64,000 bases of DNA from Eubacteriales bacterium. GTDB lineage: Bacteria > Bacillota > Clostridia > Oscillospirales > JAAYXM01. Made by a program: the position numbers and the translations under genes. The notes under the pieces are model-generated. The model did no database searches, was not told the origin of the DNA, and saw only the letters and a list, made by a program, of their open reading frames with translations. The first letter of the stretch is position 1. Each line of letters begins with the position of its first letter. This document shows, one piece after another, positions 1,946 through 51,939 of the stretch. The DNA lies in contig JAZRPG010000017.1 of the NCBI GenBank assembly GCA_045649105.1, forward strand, positions 28,006 to 92,005. The letters run 5' to 3'.

Positions 1946-3448
1946 CTACCTCCTTCGGAAGCGAATGGAGTTTCTCCGCTGTATTGCACTCGGCCGCCGC
2001 TTCATTTTCCACCACGGCGCACGCACATACGTATCCTTTGCACCCTGAGCGCTTCTGGGAATAAGATATGCCGTAAACTCCACGCCGAACGACTTAAGCG
2101 ACGATATATGCGCGGTGAATATTATAACGCCTATTGCATATCCGTATATCCCGAGCGTTGCAGAGAGAAGAAGCAGCGCAAGGCGCATTAAGATTATCTC
2201 CGATTCAAGCTTCGGCGTCAGAAATGACGCGATTCCGCACACCGCGACAATTATAATCATCTCTGCCGAAACGATATTCGCCGCGACTATGCTCTGCCCG
2301 AGCACAATGGCGCCGACCGTGCTCACCGTCACGCCGATTGCCTTCGGAAGACGCAGGCCGCCCTCACGCAGAAGGTCAAACAGGAGCAGCAGAATGAGCA
2401 TTTCAAATGCCGCGGGAAACGGCACCGCCGCACGCGAGCTTGCAATGCTCTGCAGAAGCGAAAGCGGGATAAGCTCCTTGTGATACGATATAAGCGCGAC
2501 ATAAAGTGCAGGAAGGCTTACCGCCGTAAAGAACGCAAAAAAGCGCAGAAGCCGCGAAAAGACGGCAAAATAGTAGTTTACATAGTAGTCCTCGTTCGAC
2601 TGGAAATTCTCTATAAACAGAAAAGGCGCCGTCAGCACAAAAGGCGTCCCGTCACACAGAAGCGCAATATGACCCTCGAGAAGCTTTGCCGCGACGACAT
2701 CGGGGCGCTCCGTTTTCCCGAGCGTATTAAACGGCGAGGACGGCGAGTCCGATATAAGCTCCTCTATGTAGCTTATATCGAGCACCGAGTCAATCTCAAA
2801 CGAATTAAGCCGCGCAATCATCTCCGCAACCATTCTGTCCTCACAAAGCCCGTCTACATACGTAATGCATACGCGCGTCTTGCTTACGTTCCCCAGCTCA
2901 AAAAAGCGGAATTTCAGGTTCGGATTTCTCATTTTTCGCCGCACAAGCCCGATATTTGCAACGATAAGCTCCGTAAAGCCTTCCTTCGGCCCGTTTACTG
3001 AGTTTTCTGTCTCAGGGACGCCGACACTGCGTATGTTATACTTTTTTGAGTTTGCTATAACGGCGCTCGGGCATGTATCAAGCAGAATCACCGTATCGCC
3101 GATGAGGATGCTGTTTACCGCGTCGATGGGCCTTGCCCGCGTCTTTATATCGTCCGTATTGACTACCGCCGCGGCAAACTCCTCCGCAAGATTTTCACCG
3201 AGCGATTTTCCGACAGGCGGAACGCTCATAAGCGGCCTTACGACATTCTGGTCTATTATTATATTGTTTATAAGCACCTCGGTAAATATAATACAGCCGC
3301 GAACTTTTTTGTCATGCCTGTTTTCAAAGCGGCGAAATATAACCGTGTCGTCATGCATGAGTATCTGCTTCATAAGCGCTATGTCTTCTTCAAGAACTCC
3401 CGAAAAGCGCATGCTCTCAAGCTCTTTTGTCGTGTAGCCTTTCCCCAT
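1946..3448 (-). CDS. GerA-family spore germination protein, A subunit
   Basis: 500 aa with a soluble N-terminal domain followed by a C-terminal multi-TM region (FFAFFTAVSLPALYVALISYHKELIPLSLLQSIA...), typical of GerAA/GerKA. Confidence 0.85.
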   Translation of the reverse strand: MGKGYTTKELESMRFSGVLEEDIALMKQILMHDDTVIFRRFENRHDKKVRGCIIFTEVLINNIIIDQNVVRPLMSVPPVGKSLGENLAEEFAAAVVNTDDIKTRARPIDAVNSILIGDTVILLDTCPSAVIANSKKYNIRSVGVPETENSVNGPKEGFTELIVANIGLVRRKMRNPNLKFRFFELGNVSKTRVCITYVDGLCEDRMVAEMIARLNSFEIDSVLDISYIEELISDSPSSPFNTLGKTERPDVVAAKLLEGHIALLCDGTPFVLTAPFLFIENFQSNEDYYVNYYFAVFSRLLRFFAFFTAVSLPALYVALISYHKELIPLSLLQSIASSRAAVPFPAAFEMLILLLLFDLLREGGLRLPKAIGVTVSTVGAIVLGQSIVAANIVSAEMIIIVAVCGIASFLTPKLESEIILMRLALLLLSATLGIYGYAIGVIIFTAHISSLKSFGVEFTAYLIPRSAQGAKDTYVRAPWWKMKRRPSAIQRRNSIRFRRR

Positions 3449-3574
3449 AGCTTCCTCCGCGTCATAGTTTATGGAATTAATTTTCCCGTTAAAAAAGGCT
3501 TTTATGCAAATTCTGCAAATAAAAAAACACAGCGGGAAGTATCTCCTTCCGCTGTGCTTTTATTCTTCAGAACC

Positions 3575-4264
3575 TTATTTATTTTCGGCAAAAAGACTCT
3601 CTATCGTCTTATCTCCGTATACGCCTTCCCAATCCTTGGTGAAGTCGTATATCGCCTTTGTCGTCATCGGGTGGTACATAAGTGTTGAGAACAGGTCTGA
3701 GCTTATGGTAACTGCCTGACAGCCGACCATGGCTATCTTGTGAATCTGCTCAACCGTCTTGAAGCTTGCCGCAAGAACCTTGCATTTTATGTTCTGCTTG
3801 TTGAACATCTCAACTATCTCGGTAACAACATTTACACCGTCGCTTACTATATTGTCGAGTCGGTTTACATACGGTGCTACAAAATCCGCGCCCGCTTTTG
3901 CCGCGATAAGCGCCTGCTGCTGCGTGAATATTGCAGTCATCGTTATATTAAAGCCCTCTTCCTTGAGCTTCATTGTCGCCTTGAGTCCTTCCTCGCAAAT
4001 CGGAATTTTTACATAAAAATTCCCGCCGACATACTCGCGCAGTTTCCGCGCCTCACTTATCATTTCCTCCGCAGTTTTTCCCGTGACCTGGATATGGAAC
4101 ATGCGTCCGTCGCCTATAATGCTGCGAATCTCGCGGATAAGCCCGAGAAAATCGGCATTTTCTCTTGAAATGAGCGTCGGATTCGTCGTTACGCCGTCAA
4201 CCGGGTAGAACTCCACAAGTCGGCGTATCTCCTCTACATTTGCCGTGTCAATTACATATAACAT
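3575..4264 (-). CDS. transaldolase-family protein (fructose-6-phosphate aldolase / TalC-like)
   Basis: 229 aa, MLYVIDTANVEEIRRLVEFYPVDGVTTNPTLI...VKIP...ALIAAKAGADFVAPYVNRLD. These are short-type transaldolase/Fsa signatures. Confidence 0.8.
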   Translation of the reverse strand: MLYVIDTANVEEIRRLVEFYPVDGVTTNPTLISRENADFLGLIREIRSIIGDGRMFHIQVTGKTAEEMISEARKLREYVGGNFYVKIPICEEGLKATMKLKEEGFNITMTAIFTQQQALIAAKAGADFVAPYVNRLDNIVSDGVNVVTEIVEMFNKQNIKCKVLAASFKTVEQIHKIAMVGCQAVTISSDLFSTLMYHPMTTKAIYDFTKDWEGVYGDKTIESLFAENK

Positions 4265-5262: not shown

Positions 5263-6323
5263 TTCCCTGCATCTCCCTTCTCCGCGCGGCGGACAATTCT
5301 GTAGTTTATAAAGAACTCACTGCCGAGAACAAAGAAGATTATAACTGCCTGCAGTGCATATATCATGGAAATCGGGATTCGCATTGATGTTTCAAGATAG
5401 CTTCCGCCCGCAAGAAGAATCGCAAACAAAAACGATGTTGCGACAACGGCAGGAGGCGAAAGGCGCGCAAGGTATGTAGTTATAACCGCGGTAAAGCCAA
5501 GGCCGCCCGTAAACTGCTCGGTAAGCGTCTTTTCGACGGCAGATGTCTGTACCATGCCTGCAAGTCCGCAAAGAGCACCTGAGAGAATTACCGCCCAGAC
5601 GGTGATGTTCTTTACATTTATTCCTGCATATCTTGCAGTTTCGCGGCTCTCGCCGAGAACGGAAATCTCATACCCGAATTTTGTACGGCTGATTAATATA
5701 TACACAACAAGCGTAAGCACAAGCGCTATAATCCACCCGATATGTATACCTAAAACGCTCGGAAGGACTGCATTCGGCTCAAATGTCGCTATCTTCGGCA
5801 TTCCGCCGTCCTCGCGCCACGGGCCGTACTGCAGATATGTAATCCAACGCAATGCAACGTAGTTTAACATCAGCGTTACAAGTGTTTCATTCGTTCCGAA
5901 CTTTACTTTTAACAACGCAGGGATAAGTGACCAGAGCCCGCCGCATACAACTCCGGCCGCCGCCATGAGCGGAAGCAGGACATACGCAGGAAGCCACGAA
6001 AAGTTAAGCGCAAAATATGCGGCACCGAACGCGCCCATGCACATCTGACCCTCGGCGCCGATGTTCCAGAACTTCATCTTAAATGCAATAAGCGTTCCGA
6101 GAGACAGAATTACGAGCGGGATTGCCTTGTTAAGAGTTGCGCGGAGCCTGTATGCTGACCCGAGCGCGCCGCGCACAAGGTCACCGTAGAATTTTACGGG
6201 ATTTATCCCCATAAGCATAACTATAAGCCCTGCGGCGACAAGTGCAATGACAACTGCAAGAATCTGTGCAAGTACTGCACGGTCCGGAGAAAGCTCCGGT
6301 TTCTTAACTATACGAAACATCAC
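5259..6323 (-). CDS. ABC transporter permease (BMP/nucleoside type, YufP/NupP-like)
   Basis: 354-aa polytopic membrane protein overlapping the ATPase stop by 4 nt. Confidence 0.8.
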   Translation of the reverse strand: MMFRIVKKPELSPDRAVLAQILAVVIALVAAGLIVMLMGINPVKFYGDLVRGALGSAYRLRATLNKAIPLVILSLGTLIAFKMKFWNIGAEGQMCMGAFGAAYFALNFSWLPAYVLLPLMAAAGVVCGGLWSLIPALLKVKFGTNETLVTLMLNYVALRWITYLQYGPWREDGGMPKIATFEPNAVLPSVLGIHIGWIIALVLTLVVYILISRTKFGYEISVLGESRETARYAGINVKNITVWAVILSGALCGLAGMVQTSAVEKTLTEQFTGGLGFTAVITTYLARLSPPAVVATSFLFAILLAGGSYLETSMRIPISMIYALQAVIIFFVLGSEFFINYRIVRRAEKGDAGK

Positions 6324-7876
6324 TTTGCCTCCTTCTTGCCGCGCTCTCCGAGCATCAACAGGCCGACATCCTCTTTTGTAACCGTCCTCGGGTCGACTAT
6401 GTCCATAACTTCGCCGCCCGACATTACAAGAACTCTGTCACAAAGCTCCAGAAGAACATCAAGGTCCTCACCGATAAATAAAATTGCGACGCCTTCCTGC
6501 TTTTGCTTGTTTAAAATGTCGTATATGCCGTACGATGCGCCGATATCAAGCCCGCGCACGGGATATGCCGTAATGAGAAGTATGGGATTAAGCTCAACCT
6601 CGCGCCCCAGAAGCACCTTCTGGATGTTTCCGCCTGAGAGCTTCCTCAAAATATGGTTTACGGACGGGGTCTTTATCCGATAGCGGCTTACTATGTCCTC
6701 CGCCTTCTTCTTCCCGGCCTTTCTGTCTACAAAAATGCCCTTTTGCTTCTGGAAGGAGCGGAGCAAAATGTTATTTGTTATGTCCATTCCCGCAACAAGC
6801 CCCATGCCGAGCCTGTCCTCAGGGACGAATGACATGCTGATTCCGCGCCGCAGAATTTCAATCGGTGACATACCGAGGATTTCCTCGCCCCGGAATCTTA
6901 CGCTCCCCTCACATGCCGTTTCCATGCCTGCAATAATCTCACAAAGCTCCTTCTGCCCGCTTCCCGCGATTCCCGCAACGCCGAGAATTTCGCCGCCGCG
7001 AATGGAAAAGGTCATATCCTTAAGTATTTTTCTTCCGCTCGCATTCACGCATGAAAGCCCGCTCACTTCAAGAACATTTTCCTTTGAAAGCTCGGCCTGC
7101 GGCCGCTCAATCTCGAGCTTTACCGCCTTTCCGACCATGAGCTCCGTGAGCTCCTGCGGGTTCGTCTCCGCCGTGTTCACCGTTTTGACGGTCTCCCCGT
7201 CGCGCAGAACGGTTACCCTGTCGCTTATCTCCATAACCTCATTGAGCTTATGGGTGATTATTATAATTGCGCATCCCTGCTTCTTCATGTTTCGCAGTAT
7301 GTCAAAAAGAACCTCCGCCTCCTGCGGCGTGAGGACTGCCGTCGGCTCGTCAAGGATAAACATGCTCGCGCCGCGATACAGCATCTTTACAATTTCGACA
7401 GTCTGCTTTTCTCCGACAGACATATTGTATACTTTTTTATCCGGGTCAAGCTCAAGTCCGTATTTTTCGCATATATTGACTATCTTTTCGGATATTTTTT
7501 TCGGGTTTCTGAAGAAAGCGCGCTCACTTCCCGCCGAAATATTCTCCGCAGCGGTCATGACCTCAACAAGCTTAAAGTGCTGATGTACCATTCCTATCCC
7601 TGCCGAAAGCGAGCTGTGCGGTGACGCAAAGACGCACTCCTTCCCCTCAATTACAATGGTGCCTGCGTCAGGAGAATATATGCCTGCAAGCATATTCATA
7701 AGTGTGCTTTTTCCCGAGCCATTCTCGCCGAGAAGGGCATGGATTTCGCCTCTTTTTACTTCAAGGTTTGCATCCTTGTTTGCGGCGACTTGCCCGAAGT
7801 ATTTGCAAATCCCCTGCATTTTAATGCAGACTTCACCTGTCATATCCCTCTCCACCTTTCCGGAAACATAGGTCAA
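6320..7876 (-). CDS. ABC transporter ATP-binding protein with two fused ATPase domains
   Basis: 518 aa with Walker A GENGSGKST, signature LSVGEKQ, Walker B ILDEPT and a second half (LSGGNIQK). The true start may be the internal Met at about 7843 (MTGEVCIKMQG...). Confidence 0.85.
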   Translation of the reverse strand: MTYVSGKVERDMTGEVCIKMQGICKYFGQVAANKDANLEVKRGEIHALLGENGSGKSTLMNMLAGIYSPDAGTIVIEGKECVFASPHSSLSAGIGMVHQHFKLVEVMTAAENISAGSERAFFRNPKKISEKIVNICEKYGLELDPDKKVYNMSVGEKQTVEIVKMLYRGASMFILDEPTAVLTPQEAEVLFDILRNMKKQGCAIIIITHKLNEVMEISDRVTVLRDGETVKTVNTAETNPQELTELMVGKAVKLEIERPQAELSKENVLEVSGLSCVNASGRKILKDMTFSIRGGEILGVAGIAGSGQKELCEIIAGMETACEGSVRFRGEEILGMSPIEILRRGISMSFVPEDRLGMGLVAGMDITNNILLRSFQKQKGIFVDRKAGKKKAEDIVSRYRIKTPSVNHILRKLSGGNIQKVLLGREVELNPILLITAYPVRGLDIGASYGIYDILNKQKQEGVAILFIGEDLDVLLELCDRVLVMSGGEVMDIVDPRTVTKEDVGLLMLGERGKKEAK

Positions 7877-7990: not shown

Positions 7991-9103
7991 TTATGCGTCG
8001 ATAGAACCGATAACGCCCTCGATGAACCAATTCATGTTATAGATTTCTTCGTTTGTCATGCCGTTCGGGTACTTGACAGCGCCTGACTGGTCCTTAATCT
8101 CTCCTGAGAAGAGAACGAGAGAACCGTCGATGATGCCTGCCTTTGCAGCCTCAACCTTTTCAGCCGTGCCCGGTGCACAGAGGTCTGAAAGCTCGTCAAG
8201 ACCGACCCAGCCGGAAGCGAGGCCTTCCCAGTAGGAAGCAGGCTCCCATGTGCCGTCGATTACTCTGTTTACGCAGTCAACATAGAACTTGTCCCAGTGG
8301 AAGAGCGGAGCTGTAAGGTATGCCTTCGGTGCAGCGTCCGGAGTCGGAGTGTTGTAGCCGATAGCAAACTTGCCCTTCTCCTGTGCTGCGAGCTGCGGAG
8401 CCGGAGAGTCCTGATGCTGCTCGATAACATCGCAGCCCTTGTCAAGAAGCTCAACTGCTGCCTGCTTCTCAACAGCCGGGTCATACCATGTATTTGTCCA
8501 GACAACCTCAACAGTTGCGTCCGGATTTACTGACTGTACGCCGAGTGTGAATGCGTTGATGCCGCGGATAACTTCCGGAATCTGCATAGCGGCAACATAG
8601 CCTATCTTGTTTGCCTCTGTCTTCATACCTGCAACGATACCTGCAAGGTAACGGGACTCAATAACTCTGCCCATGTAGTTGCACATGTTCGGGAGTGTCT
8701 TATATCCTGTTGCATGGTTAAAGTAAATGTTCGGATACTCTTTTGCAACGGTCTCTGTGTAATCCATATGACCGAAGCTTGTTGTGAAGATAACATTGCA
8801 GCCTGCATCAACAAGCTCGCGAACTGCTACTTCGCAGTCTGCGTTCTCTTGAATGTTCTCCTTGTAGAGGCACTCAATACCCTCAGCCTCAAGAGCAAGT
8901 CTGCCCTTGTCATGAGCCTGTGTATAACCGCCGTCGTTGATATCGCCGATGTAAACAAATCCGACCTTTAAGTCTTCCTTTGCAATCGGCTTAAGCGCTG
9001 CATCTGCATTTGCGTCTTTTTCCCCTGCACCTGTTTCTCCGCAAGCTGCAAGTGCGAAGACCATGAGTGCTGCCATAAGAAGTGCCAGAATTCTCTTTGC
9101 CAT
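7991..9103 (-). CDS. BMP-family ABC transporter substrate-binding lipoprotein (nucleoside-binding type)
   Basis: 370 aa, MAKRILALLMAALMVFALAAC lipoprotein signal; BMP/PnrA/Med-like sequence (VGFVYIGDINDGGYTQAHDKG...). Confidence 0.85.
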   Translation of the reverse strand: MAKRILALLMAALMVFALAACGETGAGEKDANADAALKPIAKEDLKVGFVYIGDINDGGYTQAHDKGRLALEAEGIECLYKENIQENADCEVAVRELVDAGCNVIFTTSFGHMDYTETVAKEYPNIYFNHATGYKTLPNMCNYMGRVIESRYLAGIVAGMKTEANKIGYVAAMQIPEVIRGINAFTLGVQSVNPDATVEVVWTNTWYDPAVEKQAAVELLDKGCDVIEQHQDSPAPQLAAQEKGKFAIGYNTPTPDAAPKAYLTAPLFHWDKFYVDCVNRVIDGTWEPASYWEGLASGWVGLDELSDLCAPGTAEKVEAAKAGIIDGSLVLFSGEIKDQSGAVKYPNGMTNEEIYNMNWFIEGVIGSIDA

Positions 9104-42507: not shown

Positions 42508-42721
42508 GTAATGGGGCGGCGCGGAAGGAAAAACCCCGCGCCGTAAGAGAAAAGACAGGATGTCGGCGGCATGTGATGATATTGCCGGTGCGGAGCAGAT
42601 GGGGATGCAAAAAAGGCGGGGTCGCCCGCAGGCACGTTGCTTTTTATAAGGCCGTGTGTGTTTGCATATCCCTCGCCGTAGCCCATGTCGTCACTGCTTT
42701 TCTTTTATCGGAGATTTTTTC

Positions 42722-43060
42722 ATGAAGTACACAGAGTCATTAAAAAAGAACAGAGACTTCAGGTTTATCTACAAGCGCGGAAAAAGCGAAGTTTCTCCCG
42801 TGCTCGCAGTGTATGTGCGCAAAACGCGCAGTGAGAAAAACCACATCGGTATTACGGTCAGCACAAAGGTTGGAAAAGCCGTTGTCAGAAACCGTGTCCG
42901 CCGCCGCATTCGCGAGGCGTACAGACTTAATGAGTCTCGCTTTGAAACGGGCAGGGATATAATAATTGTCGCCCGTGTCCGCGCCGCGCATTCTTCTTTT
43001 TCGGAGATTGAGGCGGCCCTTTTATCACTCGCGGAGAAGCTGGGGCTCATAAGGAGCTGA
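42722..43060 (+). CDS. rnpA: ribonuclease P protein component
   Basis: [32 protein letters not shown]...[17 protein letters not shown] 42722 follows GGAGA. The track ORF start (42656) is an upstream extension. Confidence 0.85.
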
Positions 43061-43064
43061 TTTA

Positions 43065-43280
43065 ATGGCAGCAAGAGCGATTATCGGATTAATAAAAATA
43101 TACCGGCGCCAAATTTCGCCGGCAAAGCCTCCGTGCTGTCGGTTTACGCCGACCTGCTCGCAGTATGCAATAGAGGCACTTCACAAATACGGAGCATTAA
43201 AGGGCGGGTATCTTGCATTTCGCAGGCTTTTAAGATGCCACCCGTTATCACATAAAAGCGGATATGACCCGGTCCCGTAA
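43065..43280 (+). CDS. yidD: membrane protein insertion efficiency factor YidD
   Basis: 71 aa, [35 protein letters not shown]. Confidence 0.85.
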
Positions 43281-43341
43281 GAGAATCGGGGTTTTTACAC
43301 GGACAAATCCGCAAAAACAGGATTGTTGAAAGGGGCAGCAA

Positions 43342-44217
43342 ATGTTTAATGCATTAATAGTACAGCCGTTTGGCTGGGTCCTTCGCCAGTGCTTTAATAT
43401 TGTCGGCTCATATGGCGTTGCGCTCATTATCTTCACGATTTTTGCAAAGCTTATCCTTCTTCCCTTCCAGATGAAGAGCAAGAAAAGCATGATGGATATG
43501 CAGCGTATCCAGCCCAAGCTTAAGGAGCTTGAAAACAAGTATAAAAATGACAAGGAGCGCTATGCGCAGGAGGTTCAGAAGCTCTATAAGAAGGAGAATG
43601 TCTCAATGTTTGGCGGCTGCCTTCCGCTTCTTATTACCCTGCCTGTCATGATAGGGCTTTATTCCGTTGTGCGTCAGCCGCTGACATACATTCTCGGTCT
43701 CTCGGCAGAGCAGATTACGGCAATAGCAGAGGCGATGAAGGAAGCAGGCGCCGCAATAAATATTTCAAGGGGATACATGACGGAGCTTAATGTTGCATCG
43801 CTTTTAGGTCAGTATCAGTCCGTTGCAGAAGCCGTTGTTCCCGGAATCGGGCATATTGACTTTTTCTTCCTCGGGCTTGACCTTGCGGCGATTCCGAACT
43901 TTAAGTATATCACTCCTCTTTGGATAATCCCGATTGTTTCGGGAATTACATCTTATTTATACTCCTGGATTACGAAAAAGAGCCAGGGGACCCAGTCTGC
44001 GGCAAACCAGCCCGGCATGAACGGAATGATGAATATCATGATGCCGCTTATGTCGGTATATATCGCATTTGTCGTTCCCGCAGGCCTTGGTTTTTACTGG
44101 ATAATAAGCAATATTTTGTCAGCAGCTCAGGAGCCGTTGCTGACTGTATATTATAAGAAAAAGCAGGAAAAGGCGCTGCTTTTGCAAGGAGGAGAAAAGA
44201 ATGGGAAGAAGAATTGA
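43342..44217 (+). CDS. yidC: YidC/Oxa1-family membrane insertase (SpoIIIJ-like)
   Basis: 291 aa, IIFTIFAKLILLPFQMKSKKSMMDMQRIQPKLKELENKY...GGCLPLLITLP. Confidence 0.85.
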   Translation: MFNALIVQPFGWVLRQCFNIVGSYGVALIIFTIFAKLILLPFQMKSKKSMMDMQRIQPKLKELENKYKNDKERYAQEVQKLYKKENVSMFGGCLPLLITLPVMIGLYSVVRQPLTYILGLSAEQITAIAEAMKEAGAAINISRGYMTELNVASLLGQYQSVAEAVVPGIGHIDFFFLGLDLAAIPNFKYITPLWIIPIVSGITSYLYSWITKKSQGTQSAANQPGMNGMMNIMMPLMSVYIAFVVPAGLGFYWIISNILSAAQEPLLTVYYKKKQEKALLLQGGEKNGKKN

Positions 44218-44977
44218 GGTCAGTGCAAAGACCATAGATGACGCGATTGAAAAAGGCCTTTTGCAGCTCGGACTTGAGCGCGAGAGCGTAACGGTAGAGG
44301 TTCTTGAAAACCCGAAATCAGGCTTTCTCGGAATCGGCGGGTCAAATGCAAAGATTCTTATGACAGAGCTTGGCGAGGACGGAGAGCCCCTGCCCGTTGA
44401 CGAGACGGAGAAAATTTCTGAAAAGCCGGCAAAAGAGACCCGCGCTGAAAAGAAAAAGGCAAAAGAAGCCCCGTCATCAGGAGATATGAAGGGTGCACAC
44501 GAGTTTTTGCAGAATGTAGTAAGCTTCATCTGTGAAGACGCACAAATCAAGGAGATTGAGAGAGCTGACGGCACATTAAAGCTCGAGGTTGTCGGTGAAA
44601 GGCTCGGCGGTATAATAGGCCGCCGCGGAGAGACGCTTGACGCGCTTCAGCACCTCGCAAATCTCGTAGAAAACCGCGGCTCAGGCGAGAAGATGCGCGT
44701 TTCGCTCGACGCGGAGAATTACCGCGCAAAGAGAGCAGATTCTCTTGAAAAGTTCGCACGCCGCGCGGCAAATCAGGTTATCAAGTACAAAAGAAGCAAG
44801 ACGCTTGAGCCGATGAACGCCTATGAAAGACATGTAGTGCATGTAGCGCTTCAGGACATGGAGAACATTTCGACAGCCTCAGTCGGAGCAGACCCGAACA
44901 GACGCGTCGTTATCTCCTACGCAGGGCCGGACGCTCCGCGCAGATATAACAACCGCCCGCCGAGAAACAACGCTTAA
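44201..44977 (+). CDS. jag: Jag/KhpB RNA-binding protein (Jag_N, KH, R3H)
   Basis: 258 aa. N-terminus is IEVSAKTIDDAIEKGLLQLG, KH-like segment is IGRRGETLDALQHL, and R3H-like is MNAYERHVVH. It overlaps the yidC end. Confidence 0.85.
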   Translation: MGRRIEVSAKTIDDAIEKGLLQLGLERESVTVEVLENPKSGFLGIGGSNAKILMTELGEDGEPLPVDETEKISEKPAKETRAEKKKAKEAPSSGDMKGAHEFLQNVVSFICEDAQIKEIERADGTLKLEVVGERLGGIIGRRGETLDALQHLANLVENRGSGEKMRVSLDAENYRAKRADSLEKFARRAANQVIKYKRSKTLEPMNAYERHVVHVALQDMENISTASVGADPNRRVVISYAGPDAPRRYNNRPPRNNA

Positions 44978-44988
44978 TAAAAAGTAAC

Positions 44989-45028
44989 AAAAAAAGAAGT
45001 CTCATATGGTGTGACCCCGTGAGGATAG
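44989..45028 (+). repeat. left inverted repeat of island
   Basis: AAAAAAAGAAGTCTCATATGGTGTGACCCCGTGAGGATAG. The reverse complement of 47061-47100 matches 31/40 positions ungapped, with the outer 15 nt identical (hand alignment). Confidence 0.6.
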
Positions 45029-45046
45029 TAAACGGAGCAGTGATTT

Positions 45047-45556
45047 TCACTGCTCCGTTTTGCTATCGTAAAAACAATCTTTTTCCCATCTTAAAACATT
45101 TGTGTCTATGTATTCCCATATTTTTTGATAATCTTTCTCTCCACGAATTATGTGGTCGTTACAAGATGATTGCCATATATTTTCACCATATTCTCTGTTA
45201 CAATATCTTTTTAACAATGACACAAATTTTGAGGTTTCATTATTGTAGGGTGCGGCGGTTTCCGACGCACCGTTTTTGTAATCTGTTATGTTGAGAATTA
45301 AATGAAAATGATTTGGCATAATTACATATTTATCTACTTTGATATATGCATATTTTTTATTCATCAATTTGATATACTTATCAAGAATTACTCCATATTC
45401 GGACAATATTATTTGCGGTGCGTCGAAATCGCCGCACCCTACAATTTTGCCGAGCAACTGTTTTCTGTCTTTTACGCATATTGTGAGAAAATACATTCCC
45501 GGTGTTGAATAATCATATCCGTTTAATCTTGTTGGCTTTCGTTTCGGTAGCTTCAT
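45047..45556 (-). CDS. HUH / Y1 tyrosine transposase-like protein (REP-associated RAYT / IS200-type)
   Basis: 169 aa. The N-terminus is RLNGYDYSTPGMYFLTICVKDRKQLLG, the HUH motif is MPNHFHLIL, and the C-terminal Tyr region is DYQKIWEYIDTN. Codon usage is AT-rich. Confidence 0.7.
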   Translation of the reverse strand: MKLPKRKPTRLNGYDYSTPGMYFLTICVKDRKQLLGKIVGCGDFDAPQIILSEYGVILDKYIKLMNKKYAYIKVDKYVIMPNHFHLILNITDYKNGASETAAPYNNETSKFVSLLKRYCNREYGENIWQSSCNDHIIRGEKDYQKIWEYIDTNVLRWEKDCFYDSKTEQ

Positions 45557-45565
45557 AATATACCC

Positions 45566-45808
45566 TTATTTTATTTCTTGTTCTAAATCATCAAAATCTT
45601 TCGTTGAAAAGAATTCTCCTAATGTTATTTCTAATCCGTCGCAAAATTTCTTGATTGTTCTTATAGAAACATCTCTACGCGATTTATCCATCATACTATA
45701 TGCAGTTGACGGTGTCACACCTGATACATTTGCAAGTTCATTTATTCGCATATTTCTTTCTGCACAAAGCTCAGCAAACCTTTTTACTATTACATCTTTT
45801 ATATCCAT
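45566..45808 (-). CDS. XRE-family helix-turn-helix transcriptional regulator
   Basis: MDIKDVIVKRFAELCAERNMRINELANVSGVTPSTAYSMMDKSRRDVSIRTIKKFCDGLEITLGEFF. It lies 9 nt upstream of the HUH gene, so the two are probably an operon. Confidence 0.75.
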   Translation of the reverse strand: MDIKDVIVKRFAELCAERNMRINELANVSGVTPSTAYSMMDKSRRDVSIRTIKKFCDGLEITLGEFFSTKDFDDLEQEIK

Positions 45809-45852
45809 TTTAAAACACCTCATGAGGATATTTTAAAATAATTTACATTCGT

Positions 45853-45893
45853 GCGTATACGCGCTTGCGTAATCCATAAATATATGTTATACT
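45853..45893 (+). promoter_or_regulatory. candidate operator plus promoter of the 333-aa gene
   Basis: A perfect 10-bp palindrome GCGTATACGC (45853-45862) sits in an AT-rich background, with TGCGTA repeated 14 nt apart. The promoter reads TTGCGT (45865-45870), 17 nt, TATACT (45888-45893). Confidence 0.4.
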
Positions 45894-45913
45894 TTGAAAA
45901 AGGAGTGATATTT

Positions 45914-46915
45914 ATGCAATTTTGGGAATTAATCAACAAGGGCGTTGACTATTACGAAAGAGGAATGAATGATTACGAAGAAAAATATTTTGCCGAAGCA
46001 AAATGTTTACGAAAAGATGCCGAATATTTGATAGGCGTTATTCATTCGACCAGAAATTTTAAAACAATGTTTGAATGTACATACGATGAAGATACAGCGA
46101 CAATATTTAATTCTTATTTTACTGTAATAAATTATACTGTAAAAGCTTATGACGAAGGGAGTATAGAAAGAGATATATGCGAATACATATTAAGTAAAAT
46201 GTTGGATTTAAAAGCTATGTTTTTAAAATCAGTAAAATCACATCTTTGGCTTTTGACAGGAGAACAAGATGATTCAGCAAAAGTAGTCAAAATGTATGAT
46301 GATTTCAAGAAATATTTACAAATAAACAAGAAAAAATTGATTAGTGCTTTTAATGAATTTAATAGAGTAGTAGATATAAAGTTGACAGAATATGATATAG
46401 ACTTGTTAACTGCATGGTGTTATATAATCATTTTAAACGATTATGAGTCATCTGGAAGTATTGATAATGGATATGTGGCTAGAACAAGTGGTATTCAATG
46501 GGATAAAACATTTTCTTCATCACAAACACGAATTGAACGGGATATTGAAATGGTAACATATCGTATGCCTAGATTGATGCTTATATGTTATGATGAAGAA
46601 GAATATCGAAAAGAATATATTAAAGAATTTAGAACCATATTGCAAAAGTGTGGAGTTGCAGAAAAAGATGTTATAAAGTTTCAAAAAGACTTTTCTAAAA
46701 AAGTTTTTGCGTATGACACGGATGATTATAAACAATATTTATCATTTGAACCATTTATCAACGATAATATATTAGAAAACAAAAACGGTTGCAGAAAGTA
46801 TATCATATATTTTATTCCAATTGTTGGTCCAATATATATAATATACAAAATAATAAGTTATTGGGTTAAAACAATTAAGGAATATATAAAGGTACTATTT
46901 GATGCTTTCAAATAA
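45914..46915 (+). CDS. hypothetical 333-aa protein with single C-terminal TM helix (no recognisable domain)
   Basis: ATG 45914 follows AAAGGAGTG. The protein MQFWELINKGVDYYERGMNDYEEKYFAEAK... is acidic/basic, helical-looking and rich in Y/K/E/D/I. The C-terminus is KYIIYFIPIVGPIYIIYKIISYWV. The track start 45851 is an upstream extension. Confidence 0.6.
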   Translation: MQFWELINKGVDYYERGMNDYEEKYFAEAKCLRKDAEYLIGVIHSTRNFKTMFECTYDEDTATIFNSYFTVINYTVKAYDEGSIERDICEYILSKMLDLKAMFLKSVKSHLWLLTGEQDDSAKVVKMYDDFKKYLQINKKKLISAFNEFNRVVDIKLTEYDIDLLTAWCYIIILNDYESSGSIDNGYVARTSGIQWDKTFSSSQTRIERDIEMVTYRMPRLMLICYDEEEYRKEYIKEFRTILQKCGVAEKDVIKFQKDFSKKVFAYDTDDYKQYLSFEPFINDNILENKNGCRKYIIYFIPIVGPIYIIYKIISYWVKTIKEYIKVLFDAFK

Positions 46916-47017
46916 TATGTCCGGTACTGTAACAAGCAGGGAAGATGTGTAGCATCTTCCGAAAATTTAGGATATCCTAAGACCTTATATAACGGGCGAT
47001 TCGTGAATAGCCCGTAC

Positions 47018-47054
47018 AAAAAAGGCTGAACGATCGATTTCGTTCAGCCTTTTA
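47018..47054 (+). terminator. rho-independent terminator inside right end of island
   Basis: AGGCTGAACG-ATCGATTT-CGTTCAGCCT followed by TTT. Confidence 0.7.
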
Positions 47055-47060
47055 ACATTA

Positions 47061-47100
47061 CTGTCCTTAAGGGTACACCTCTTACGAGACTTCTTTTTTT
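47061..47100 (-). repeat. right inverted repeat of island
   Basis: The reverse complement reads AAAAAAAGAAGTCTCGTAAGAGGTGTACCCTTAAGGACAG. It ends at the base before the mntP stop codon. Confidence 0.6.
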
Positions 47101-47673
47101 CTAAAATATTTCTAAATGCTCAAGCAGGATTTTGATGCCGAGGATTACAAGGATTGCACCGCCTGCAATCTGGGCCTTTTTTTCAAACCGGCTTCCGAAT
47201 ACGCTCCCTGTTTTCACTCCGACAGCGGAAAGAACAAAGGTTATAACTCCAATAACACATATTGCGCCCCAGATATTCACTTCGCCCGTCATCGCAAGAG
47301 ATATGCCGACCGCAAGCGCGTCTACAGATGTTGCAACTGCCATTGCAAGCATTGTTTTTGCGGAAAAATCCGCCGCCTTTTCACAGTCGCAATCGCTATC
47401 GTCTGAAAAAGCGTCTTTTAACATGTTTGCGCCGATAAAGAAAAGGAGAAGGAATGCCACCCAGTGGTCAAAGGCAACTATCTGCCGTGCAAACAAGCTG
47501 CCGAGGAAGAACCCCAGAAGCGGCATCAGCGCCTGAAACCCGCCAAACCAGAGTCCGCATTTCGCCATATTTTTAATCCCCGCATTTTTTGCAGACAAGC
47601 CCTTGCACACAGAAACGGCAAAAGCGTCCATGCTAAGCCCGAGCCCGAGCAGGGAGAGCTCAATAAAACCCAT
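47101..47673 (-). CDS. mntP: manganese efflux pump MntP
   Basis: 190 aa, LLGLGLSMDAFAVSV...ATSVDALAVGISLA. This is the duplicated DUF204 motif typical of MntP. Confidence 0.85.
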   Translation of the reverse strand: MGFIELSLLGLGLSMDAFAVSVCKGLSAKNAGIKNMAKCGLWFGGFQALMPLLGFFLGSLFARQIVAFDHWVAFLLLFFIGANMLKDAFSDDSDCDCEKAADFSAKTMLAMAVATSVDALAVGISLAMTGEVNIWGAICVIGVITFVLSAVGVKTGSVFGSRFEKKAQIAGGAILVILGIKILLEHLEIF

Positions 47674-51200: not shown

Positions 51201-51277
51201 GCACATCACCTCTGATTGCAATAAATCCGTTTCTTTAATTATTATAACACGATAAGAGAAAAATTCAAGAGCAATAT

Positions 51278-51293
51278 TGTTCCACGTGGAACA
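51278..51293. other. parS site 1
   Basis: TGTTCCACGTGGAACA is a perfect 16-bp palindrome, one position off the B. subtilis parS consensus TGTTCCACGTGAAACA. Confidence 0.8.
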
Positions 51294-51322
51294 ATAAAAA
51301 TGCGGCAAAACAAAAACTGCAA

Positions 51323-51338
51323 TGTTCCATGTGGAACA
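51323..51338. other. parS site 2
   Basis: TGTTCCATGTGGAACA is embedded in the longer palindrome TGCAATGTTCCATGTGGAACATTGCA. Confidence 0.7.
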
Positions 51339-51732
51339 TTGCAGCAACTATATAAGGGTGAGGTTTAGGCGTTGGCGGAACCGAATAATTTTAATTCTAT
51401 CTTTAAGGCCATTAAAATCATGCCGTGAAGCAAAGCTTAAATTTTTAATTCTCTGTATTTAATAAAGTCAGATATGCAGTTTCTTGATATTTGAAGTTTT
51501 ATATTCGTGCCCTATCTCCCCACATACAAGCACAACATCATACGGTACCATTGAAATTAAGAGGTGGTTTTAATGTTTTTCAAAAGATTATATGATTTGC
51601 GAACAGATAAAAAGAAACCAAGATAGAGAGAAGATACATCACATACGATGTATGTTCTTTTTATGTGCCTTTAAAACTATTTGACAAAAAGCGACAAGTC
51701 TTTTCAGGGAGTAGTGAATAGGTATAATAAGT

Positions 51733-51766
51733 AAAACAGACAAGATTCAGTCAGAATCTTGTCTGT
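51733..51766 (-). terminator. rho-independent terminator after tRNA-Tyr
   Basis: CAGACAAGATTC-loop-GAATCTTGTCTG with TTTT on the minus strand. Confidence 0.75.
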
Positions 51767-51768
51767 TT

Positions 51769-51853
51769 TGGTGGAGGAGGGTGGATTCGAACCACCGAAG
51801 TCGACGACAACAGATTTACAGTCTGCCCCCTTTGGCCACTCGGGAACTCCTCC
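51769..51853 (-). tRNA. tRNA-Tyr (anticodon GTA), long variable arm, encoded CCA
   Basis: The reverse complement reads GGAGGAGTTCCCGAGTGGCCAAAGGGGGCAGACTGTAAATCTGTTGTCGTCGACTTCGGTGGTTCGAATCCACCCTCCTCCACCA. Confidence 0.9.
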
Positions 51854-51863
51854 ATATAAGTTT

Positions 51864-51939
51864 TGGAGCTGGTAATAGGACTTGAACCTACAACCTGCTG
51901 ATTACAAATCAGCTGCTCTGCCAATTGAGCTATACCAGC
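51864..51939 (-). tRNA. tRNA-Thr (anticodon TGT), encoded CCA
   Basis: The reverse complement reads GCTGGTATAGCTCAATTGGCAGAGCAGCTGATTTGTAATCAGCAGGTTGTAGGTTCAAGTCCTATTACCAGCTCCA. Confidence 0.9.

Follow-up and report, generated by a model that had tools for sequence, protein, structure and literature searches.

A probably mobile, TIRtron-like RAYT element in a terminator hairpin between jag and mntP of a Clostridia genome

What is a strongly AT-rich block of some 2 kb doing between the GC-rich core genes jag and mntP, and what could have put it there? The question is raised by a 64,000-nt stretch of an Eubacteriales genome (contig JAZRPG010000017.1, assembly GCA_045649105.1), referred to here as the window; all coordinates are counted in it unless another locus is named, and the related loci and contigs that we compared with it are numbered L001 to L100. 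A preliminary description, made from the sequence alone, had delimited an island at 44989 to 47100 by 40-nt inverted repeats, had found in it a gene for a tyrosine transposase associated with repetitive extragenic palindromes, or REPs (RAYT), a regulator gene, and an orphan gene, and had proposed a novel mobile or accessory module. All three genes are there, and they encode a RAYT-type Y1/HUH nuclease, an XRE regulator, and a true orphan protein. We find the island to be a real insertion and a discrete module acquired horizontally. With a probability of roughly 0.6, we read it as a mobile TIRtron-like RAYT element that targets the loops of terminators and in which the nuclease would act as the transposase.

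The composition of the island and its position between the two genes were described correctly. GC content is 0.24 to 0.35 in 300-nt windows across ~45.0 to 47.1 kb, versus ~0.5 on either side, and stands at 0.31 for the island versus 0.497 for the remainder of the window. Domain searches identified the flanking genes as jag (Jag_N, KH, and R3H domains) and mntP. The left arm of the 40-nt repeat begins 11 nt past the jag stop codon (44975-44977), and the right arm ends one base before the mntP stop codon (47101-47103).

Direct evidence for an insertion comes from an exact look-up of the window's Jag protein, which led to L001, a 2245-nt contig from another sample with a 100% identical Jag. Since its flanks differ from those of the window at 13 of 2247 nt (99.4% identity), L001 is a different but very close strain. 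In L001, 11 nt separate jag from AAAAAAAGAAGTCTC-ATAC-GAGACTTCTTTTTTT (1851-1884), which the mntP stop codon adjoins. This empty site, which supports the idea of an acquired module, is a hairpin with a perfect 15-bp stem and the loop ATAC (−13.8 kcal/mol and z −7.1 when folded as DNA), a typical bidirectional intrinsic terminator between the convergent genes jag and mntP. There is a TA at both junctions of the occupied allele (45005-45006 on the left and 47083-47084 on the right) versus a single TA in the empty site; between near-identical strains, the island is present or absent to the exact base. The junction sequence of L001, CATACG, is missing from the occupied allele, so that collapse of the repeat by a k-mer assembler would not have yielded it.

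The empty site also changes where the element begins and ends. Because L001 holds the intact hairpin, the outer 15 identical nt of the two arms can be recognized as one host stem, cut in half by the island. Both the left half (44989-45003), which pairs with GAGACTTCTTTTTTT across ATAC in L001, and the right half (47086-47100) are host DNA outside the element, which runs from 45007 to 47084 (2078 bp) rather than from 44989 to 47100. The 40-nt repeat is therefore a composite, of which the outer 15 nt come from the host terminator stem and the inner ~25 nt are the element's own. The arms themselves had been read correctly: 44989-45028 and the reverse complement of 47061-47100 match at 31 of 40 ungapped positions, the outer 15 identically. 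In the 64 kb, the outer 15-mer occurs exactly twice, both times at an island edge (0.3 occurrences are expected at up to 2 mismatches). The longest inverted repeat of the region, 44974-45031 with 47058-47115, extends over 58 nt at 72%.

Once the host stem is excluded, are the ends of the element still related? A gapped alignment of TGGTGTGACCCCGTGAGGATAGTAA on the nuclease side (45007-45031) with AGAGGTGTACCCTTAAGGACAGTAA, the reverse complement of the cargo end (47058-47082), pairs 19 of 22 positions and needs two 1-nt gaps; of random 25-mer pairs drawn from the island, 0.18% score at least as high. Moreover, L006, L009, L089, L098, and L099 have a homologous repeat downstream of their nuclease genes. 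A chance match, raised earlier as a concern, is thus unlikely for the inner ~25 nt. They are not the REP-type flanking repeats with which the preliminary description compared them but terminal inverted repeats as in TIRtrons (Di Nocera et al. 2013, PMC3733652); GTAG-REPs lie elsewhere in the element.

Just inside each terminal repeat, where terminators had been reported, is a hairpin with a perfect 14-bp stem and A/T runs on either side. The first (45030-45060; arms 45030-45043 and 45047-45060; DNA fold z −6.6) overlaps the nuclease stop codon, and its position is kept in L089, L009, and L006 with a different stem sequence; it is likely a bidirectional terminator that substitutes for the split host terminator. 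The second (47020-47053; arms 47020-47033 and 47040-47053; also folded as DNA) is near-identical in L089 and shows compensatory stem changes in L007, L098, and L099. It would terminate both transcription of the cargo gene and transcription coming in from the mntP side. We considered the two as recognition hairpins of the IS608 kind and rejected this; their sequences reassort independently of the nuclease, which makes terminators the more likely function.

Which protein might act on these ends? The gene beside the left repeat (45047-45556, minus strand) encodes a 169-aa Y1/HUH nuclease of the TnpA_REP (RAYT) type, and no other recombinase gene lies within the element. The Pfam model Y1_Tnp, proposed earlier as the check on this protein, scores it at 17.9 bits, below the 23-bit gathering cutoff. 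By contrast, NCBIfam REP_Tyr_transpos matches at E 3e-15 (56 bits, under the 80-bit equivalog cutoff), and a profile of 32 relatives found a sole match in the PDB, E. coli TnpA_REP (4ER8; E 4.5e-7). The alignment with 4ER8 places pnHfH on peHmH, WQ on WQ, and Y149 on Y115. The protein thus combines an HUH motif and a catalytic tyrosine in a core homologous to E. coli TnpA_REP, as a TnpA_REP/RAYT protein does. Its catalytic residues are intact: NHFH lies at residues 82-85, WQ at 128-129, and the catalytic Tyr149 within YIDTNV, and the HUH, WQ, and catalytic Tyr residues are invariant among the 32 relatives. In the class 2 signature Y---NP, the N is invariant and the P is not, the window having YIDTNV and its close relatives YIDTNP or YIDTNV.

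Subclass 2.4, which equals RAYT group 4, is defined by the motifs NH[IFV]H, WQ, and YIxNNP and has as its hallmark in-frame insertions of GTAG-REPs within the gene (Quentin et al. 2018, PMC6006769). The window's gene has NHFH, WQ, and two such intragenic REPs, found by an inverted-repeat search, and assignment to subclass 2.4 on motifs and intragenic REPs fits. Copy B (45242-45271, plus strand), ATT-GTAG-GGTGCGGCGGTTTCCGACGCACC, encodes GASETAAPYN in frame; copy A (45417-45445, minus strand), inverted relative to copy B, encodes IVGCGDFDAP in frame. Together they form a GC-rich inverted repeat of 21 to 30 nt, in opposite orientation, that flanks the HUH motif. About half of 84 homologous genes have a REP pair at the same positions, perfectly complementary over 14 to 32 nt, although its sequence varies from gene to gene (e.g., GTAGGGCAGGGGCTTGCCCCTGCC versus GTAGGGGCGATTAATAATCGCCC). 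Gene conversion may account for this regular, covarying doublet, as may selection for pairing or homogenization with the REP population of each genome. We also considered the inverted repeat as an invertible switch; inversion would create a stop codon (TAA at 45299-45301), and a REP pair fits better. Beyond these two copies, the element holds one degenerate copy downstream of the cargo gene, copy C (46992-47017, minus strand), with a GTAC foot and a GGGC...GCCC hairpin; at the equivalent place, L007 and L089 have the canonical GTAGGGTTCGGCGGTTTCCGACGAACC. With up to 3 mismatches allowed, a search of the window for the intragenic REP found no other copies.

The nuclease belongs to a very large family, with 1772 clusters at E ≤ 1e-10. 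No match was returned when the exact sequence of the window's protein was looked up. A scan of IMG/VR with the nuclease alignment found nothing, neither IMG/VR nor the GenBank phage collections held a close relative, and tblastn against plasmids and phages returned only relatives of ≤38% identity; there is thus no evidence that the element is plasmid or phage borne.

Does the same arrangement occur elsewhere? The genomic contexts of close nuclease relatives (76 to 91% identity) yielded three further complete elements with both ends, all in other Clostridia metagenome-assembled genomes (MAGs): L089 (1894 bp), L098 (1942 bp), and L099 (1191 bp). They share a backbone with the window's element. 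Followed in the direction of the nuclease gene, it starts with an imperfect repeat of ~25 nt, a hairpin terminator, a GTAG-REP, ~75 nt of conserved noncoding sequence, and a cargo gene on the opposite strand, and continues with a divergent promoter containing a palindromic operator, a helix-turn-helix (HTH) gene, the nuclease gene, a hairpin terminator, and the second repeat. GC content is 0.31 to 0.33 in the elements and 0.40 to 0.50 in the host flanks. The window's element is probably one copy of a small family of mobile elements, ~1.2 to 2.1 kb in length, that occurs in gut-type Clostridia MAGs.

The junctions of these three elements also follow one pattern: an A-run, a stem, and TA precede the first repeat, and TA, the complementary stem, and a T-run follow the second. 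Given these borders, each of the three sits at a TA in the loop of a terminator-like hairpin. L098 is flanked by a perfect 12-bp stem around GGA-TA-TCC, and L099 has ~19 additional bases between TA and the complementary stem. The terminator occupied in L089 recurs twice, unoccupied, ~220 and ~430 nt downstream, beside tRNA genes. L006 offers a half site of similar appearance, AAAAAAGTTGCCAATTA|TGAGGTGTAC. The target at a hairpin apex is accordingly seen in four complete elements, the window's included, and in one half site.

Comparison of the four elements and their relatives reveals how they are put together. The nucleases of L098 and L099 are 91% identical, and that of the window is 85 to 87% identical to those of L089 and L009. 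The repeats fall into the same groups, with the GAGTGTTCTT type in L098 and L099 and GTGTACCC-like repeats in the window, L089, and L009. The regulators form other groups, the window with L099 (81%) and L089 with L092 (85%), while L098 stands apart at 20 to 26%, its regulator being only 20% identical to that of L099 despite the 91% identity of their nucleases. Cargo type tracks neither the nuclease nor the regulator, and the sequences of the hairpin terminators reassort as well. Because the groupings differ, the ends with the nuclease, the regulator with its operator, and the cargo can be regarded as three exchangeable modules. Moreover, since the repeats keep to the nuclease lineage despite the reshuffling between them, we favor the nuclease over the regulator as the protein that acts on the ends. 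That the regulator might instead bind the repeats, as the fused HTH of subclass 2.1 would suggest, was rejected as a main idea, since repeat type follows the nuclease and not the regulator.

The same comparison bears on the most serious rival, namely, that the element is nonautonomous and that its repeats are recognized by an IS630/Tc1-mariner DDE transposase encoded elsewhere, with the RAYT, regulator, and cargo genes as passengers. It is the chief rival because inverted repeats with a TA duplication are the signature of such enzymes: IS630/mariner elements and their miniature inverted-repeat transposable elements (MITEs), such as the Correia elements of Neisseria, typically have inverted repeats of ~25 nt and a TA at either side, and the window's element has both. 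However, the element encodes no DDE transposase, and its target is structural, a hairpin apex, which IS630-type elements are not known to favor. The repeat lies at a fixed distance downstream of the nuclease gene at seven loci in different genomes, the window included, and its type tracks the nuclease lineage despite the reshuffled interior, as described above. Furthermore, the 544 kb of related loci scanned for repeat-bounded copies contained none without the nuclease gene, the one near-miss being a palindrome in L089. We regard mobilization by such an enzyme in trans as unlikely.

The near-miss is an observation in its own right. At L089 2546-2585, ~80 nt outside the element, lies the perfect palindrome GCCGAGTGTTC-TTAG-GAACACTCGGC, followed by a T-run, whose arms match the outer part of the repeat of the L098/L099 type (GAGTGTTCTTA). 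It might be a miniature repeat doublet, an excision remnant, or a terminator that shares this sequence by chance.

How might a Y1 nuclease move a symmetric element of this kind? We propose that the enzyme would cut each strand 3′ of the TA that adjoins its repeat, the two ends being the same sequence on opposite strands. Each 5′ end would then be joined to the 3′-OH left by cutting a TA in the single-stranded loop of a terminator hairpin, exposed either by extrusion of the hairpin or on the lagging-strand template. Were both loops of an extruded hairpin cut after TA, the resulting 2-nt stagger would leave TA on either side without a duplication made by repair. The chemistry of cleavage and joining is established for IS608 and TnpA_REP (PMC8266576), and the single-strand mechanism suggested here is borrowed from it by analogy. 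The regulator is predicted to repress both divergent promoters, most likely through the palindromic site at 45852-45871. Finally, termination for jag and mntP would be taken over by the two internal hairpins, which would make the insertion harmless.

Several points speak against the nuclease as the transposase. IS630/Tc1-mariner DDE transposases are the enzymes for which inverted repeats and a TA duplication are characteristic. The sequences of the subterminal hairpins do not track the nuclease lineage and resemble plain terminators. The 64-kb window holds one copy of the repeat pair, with no dispersed REPs or further repeat copies, so that activity in the source genome is unproven. Nuclease genes of the same clade in L090 and L100 lack the repeats, and a single strict pair of empty and occupied sites was found. 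Known Y1/HUH transposons of the IS200/IS605 group have neither terminal inverted repeats nor target duplications (PMC6006769), a point that also favors a DDE enzyme in trans. Moreover, RAYTs are regarded as single copy and domesticated (PMC5581495).

This last view leads to a further alternative, that the island is a domesticated REPtron that no longer moves, gained here or lost in L001 through homologous recombination or another host process, with its repeats as relics. Its single copy in the window and the repeat-free genes of L090 and L100 are in keeping with this, as are the single-copy, vertical inheritance usual for RAYTs (PMC5581495) and the subclass 2.4 features, the intragenic GTAG-REPs among them. 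However, what separates the two strains is a base-precise difference at a TA within a 4-nt hairpin loop, between flanks that are 99.4% identical, and a 2-bp direct repeat is unable to drive a homologous deletion. In addition, four complete elements in unrelated contexts share one junction structure, and their constant low GC in hosts of varied GC argues for transfer between hosts. An immobile REPtron is therefore improbable.

We return to the favored interpretation of a mobile element that the RAYT itself moves. In a bolder form, put forward tentatively and at clearly less than even odds, a subclass 2.4 RAYT may still be an active transposase that moves a symmetric, repeat-bounded element, cutting either strand at TA and inserting it into the TA of the single-stranded apical loop of intrinsic terminators, bringing along replacement terminators and swappable cargo under the control of a regulator. 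Such an element would stand, as a living intermediate, between IS200/IS605 and REP/RAYT systems that have been domesticated; it would also be the first Y1 element whose target is defined by structure.

Where does the element stand among known systems? It most resembles the TIRtrons, or TIRYTs, of Di Nocera et al. 2013 (PMC3733652), genes for RAYT-like tyrosine nucleases between long inverted repeats at the termini. In the window, too, a RAYT-like Y1 gene has long inverted repeats on either side that bear no relation to GTAG-REPs, and the left repeat holds GGGGTCAC, which fits the published motif GGGGWSAS; the motif is, however, absent from the other nine repeat ends of the element family. Most of the published TIRYTs belong to subclass 2.1 and have an HTH fused at the C terminus (PMC6006769), whereas the window's protein has 169 aa, is subclass 2.4-like, and lacks an HTH, which is instead encoded by a separate upstream gene. 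Moreover, the window's element has an empty site, a target TA in a terminator loop, and exchangeable cargo, none of which we found in the TIRtron literature. In the literature at large, as far as our incomplete coverage of it reaches, no RAYT unit is described with any of these three features.

REPtrons provide the second comparison. The nuclease has the motifs NH[IFV]H, WQ, and YIxxN(P/V), its sole solved relative is 4ER8, and its gene contains in-frame GTAG-REPs with another GTAG-REP nearby. Classical REPtrons are bordered directly by REPs, are single copy and vertically inherited, and have REPs dispersed in the genome (PMC6006769, PMC5581495). The window's unit is instead bordered by inverted repeats and carries a regulator and cargo. 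Outside the nuclease gene, it has one degenerate REP, and the 64 kb hold no dispersed ones. Nor is it vertically fixed: it is polymorphic between strains at 99.4% flank identity, and its backbone occurs in four unrelated contexts.

Elements of the IS200/IS605 group, such as IS608 and ISDra2, resemble it in that their Y1/HUH enzyme is small, their hairpins are subterminal, and a short, fixed target motif adjoins the end. Unlike the window's element, with inverted repeats and a TA on both sides, they are strand-asymmetric. Their subclass 1.1 enzymes have Y---Q and pass the Pfam Y1_Tnp cutoff that the window's protein, with the class 2 Y---N of YIDTN, falls short of; their accessory genes are tnpB or iscB, versus a regulator and cargo here. 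Insertion at or beside an intergenic stem-loop, which spares genes, is in turn known from hairpin-homing elements, namely, class C group II introns at terminators and IS1397/ISKpn1 and the IS110 family at REP loops. Their enzymes are reverse transcriptase/ribozyme, DDE, and DEDD, and none is a Y1 nuclease.

The preliminary description was right that the combination of a RAYT gene, a regulator, and cargo within inverted repeats is unusual; the nuclease itself belongs to a described subclass (Quentin et al. 2018). The RAYT, or TnpA_REP, is the textbook domesticated transposase of bacteria: single copy, vertically inherited, and never observed to move itself; TIRtrons have so far merely been cataloged. 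Here, a RAYT gene belongs to a unit with base-precise polymorphism, a defined target (the TA at the apex of a terminator hairpin), and exchangeable cargo, so that a nuclease family usually viewed as immobile travels in a cargo-carrying, transposon-like unit. If the nuclease mobilizes the element, it would provide a tractable system for the route of Y1 enzymes from insertion sequences to REP systems, a simple and gene-neutral insertion rule (split one terminator and bring two), and a compact natural carrier of cargo in gut Clostridia. If it does not, what remains is a well-delimited, strain-variable island with an orphan membrane protein, of ordinary interest.

What, then, does the element carry? 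Upstream of the nuclease gene by 9 nt, and on the same strand, is the gene for an XRE/Cro-type HTH regulator (45566-45808, minus strand; Pfam HTH_26, E 9e-10), 80 aa from an MDIKD start in an open reading frame that extends to 45823. Homologues, likewise of 80 aa, occupy the equivalent position in L089, L092, and L099. An HTH gene lies directly upstream of the nuclease gene at 7 loci of the close clade, counting L084 and the Trp_repressor-type gene of L090, and is absent from most of the ~65 more distant nuclease loci that could be evaluated. The repeat core, too, was absent from the ~80 more distant nuclease loci searched, several of which are instead flanked by classical REPs. Direct reading of the divergent promoter region that separates regulator and cargo reveals TGCGTA-TACGCG-CT-TGCGTA (45852-45871) as a candidate operator; a nearly identical sequence, TACGCAAGTGCGTATACGCA, occurs in L099, whose regulator is the one 81% identical to the window's.

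The cargo gene (45914-46915, plus strand) encodes a mostly helical 333-aa orphan with a hydrophobic C-terminal helix. It matches nothing in Pfam, NCBIfam, PADLOC, or PHROGs, and an exact-sequence look-up found no match. Homologues numbered 13 among 5.8 billion clusters and 7 representatives among 1.84 billion, and a scan of the genome collection with the orphan alignment gave two loci only. An AlphaFold2 model (mean pLDDT 63) had no fold match in the PDB with Foldseek at E ≤ 0.001. The other elements carry different cargo: Cu_amine_oxidN1 proteins with a signal peptide in L089 (257 aa; 2863-3636) and L098 (290 aa; 2785-3657), a 34-aa hydrophobic peptide, MTMLAVFLILAGLFLAPTGWGIIMIILGIILLKG, in L099 (3532-3636, minus strand), and two zinc-ribbon multipass membrane proteins in the degenerate L092 (2783-3630). 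Each cargo seen on this backbone, including the window's tail-anchored orphan, is a membrane or secreted protein.

After the stop codon of the cargo gene follows a conserved noncoding segment of the backbone (46916-46991, plus strand), which contains a hairpin (46940-46960) and the palindrome TTAGGATATCCTAA (46967-46980). These ~75 nt are retained in L007, L089, L098, and L099 even with a different cargo gene, and Rfam recognized no family in the island, this segment included. The segment may be a 3′-untranslated-region element, a small RNA, or a recombination boundary for the exchange of cargo.

Might the cargo itself be the reason that these elements persist? One could suppose that regulator and cargo form the selfish or selected core, for instance, an addiction or phage exclusion module, that recruits various backbones, with the RAYT gene as an incidental companion. 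Regulator-orphan pairs without a nuclease gene or inverted repeats do occur, at L002 6438-7761, L004 7471-8780, and L008 ~6001-6576, and the membrane or secreted nature of all cargoes, down to a peptide of 34 aa, would suit such a role. However, the orphan matches no defense or toxin family, and it is the cargo that is swapped on a constant backbone, not the reverse. Moreover, the idea addresses the function of the cargo and leaves the junctions at TA in terminator loops unexplained. We consider it the most improbable of the alternatives discussed here.

The nuclease-free pair lies between proS and an acetyltransferase-mntP cluster, hence near mntP as in the window. This proximity could be due to chance, could mark an ancestral home of the cargo module, or could be left from a decayed element. 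The terminator that follows the orphan homologue (AACGGTGCGGCAAAGTTGCCGCACCGTT at L002 7762-7790) is split in L004 (~8798-9065) by an insert of ~268 nt with short inverted ends of its own (CCACCACCCAATAAGG ... CCTTATCAGGCGGCGG). This insert is a second, unrelated small element in a terminator loop.

Some neighborhoods of the elements may be noted as well. Phage morphogenesis genes (SU10 or P22 portal and Mu-like capsid) lie beside the elements at L092 (5268-8495) and L098 (1-2591), and these two elements appear to be located inside or next to prophages. In the window, the island directly follows a gene run at 42656-44977 that reads as rnpA, yidD, yidC, and jag, a cluster that usually neighbors the replication origin. 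The identity of yidC is given by Pfam 60KD_IMP on the identical gene in L001, whereas the labels rnpA and yidD come only from a reading of the translations. Another low-GC stretch of the window (0.31 to 0.37) lies at 51250-51850, adjoining two tRNA genes at 51772-51939.

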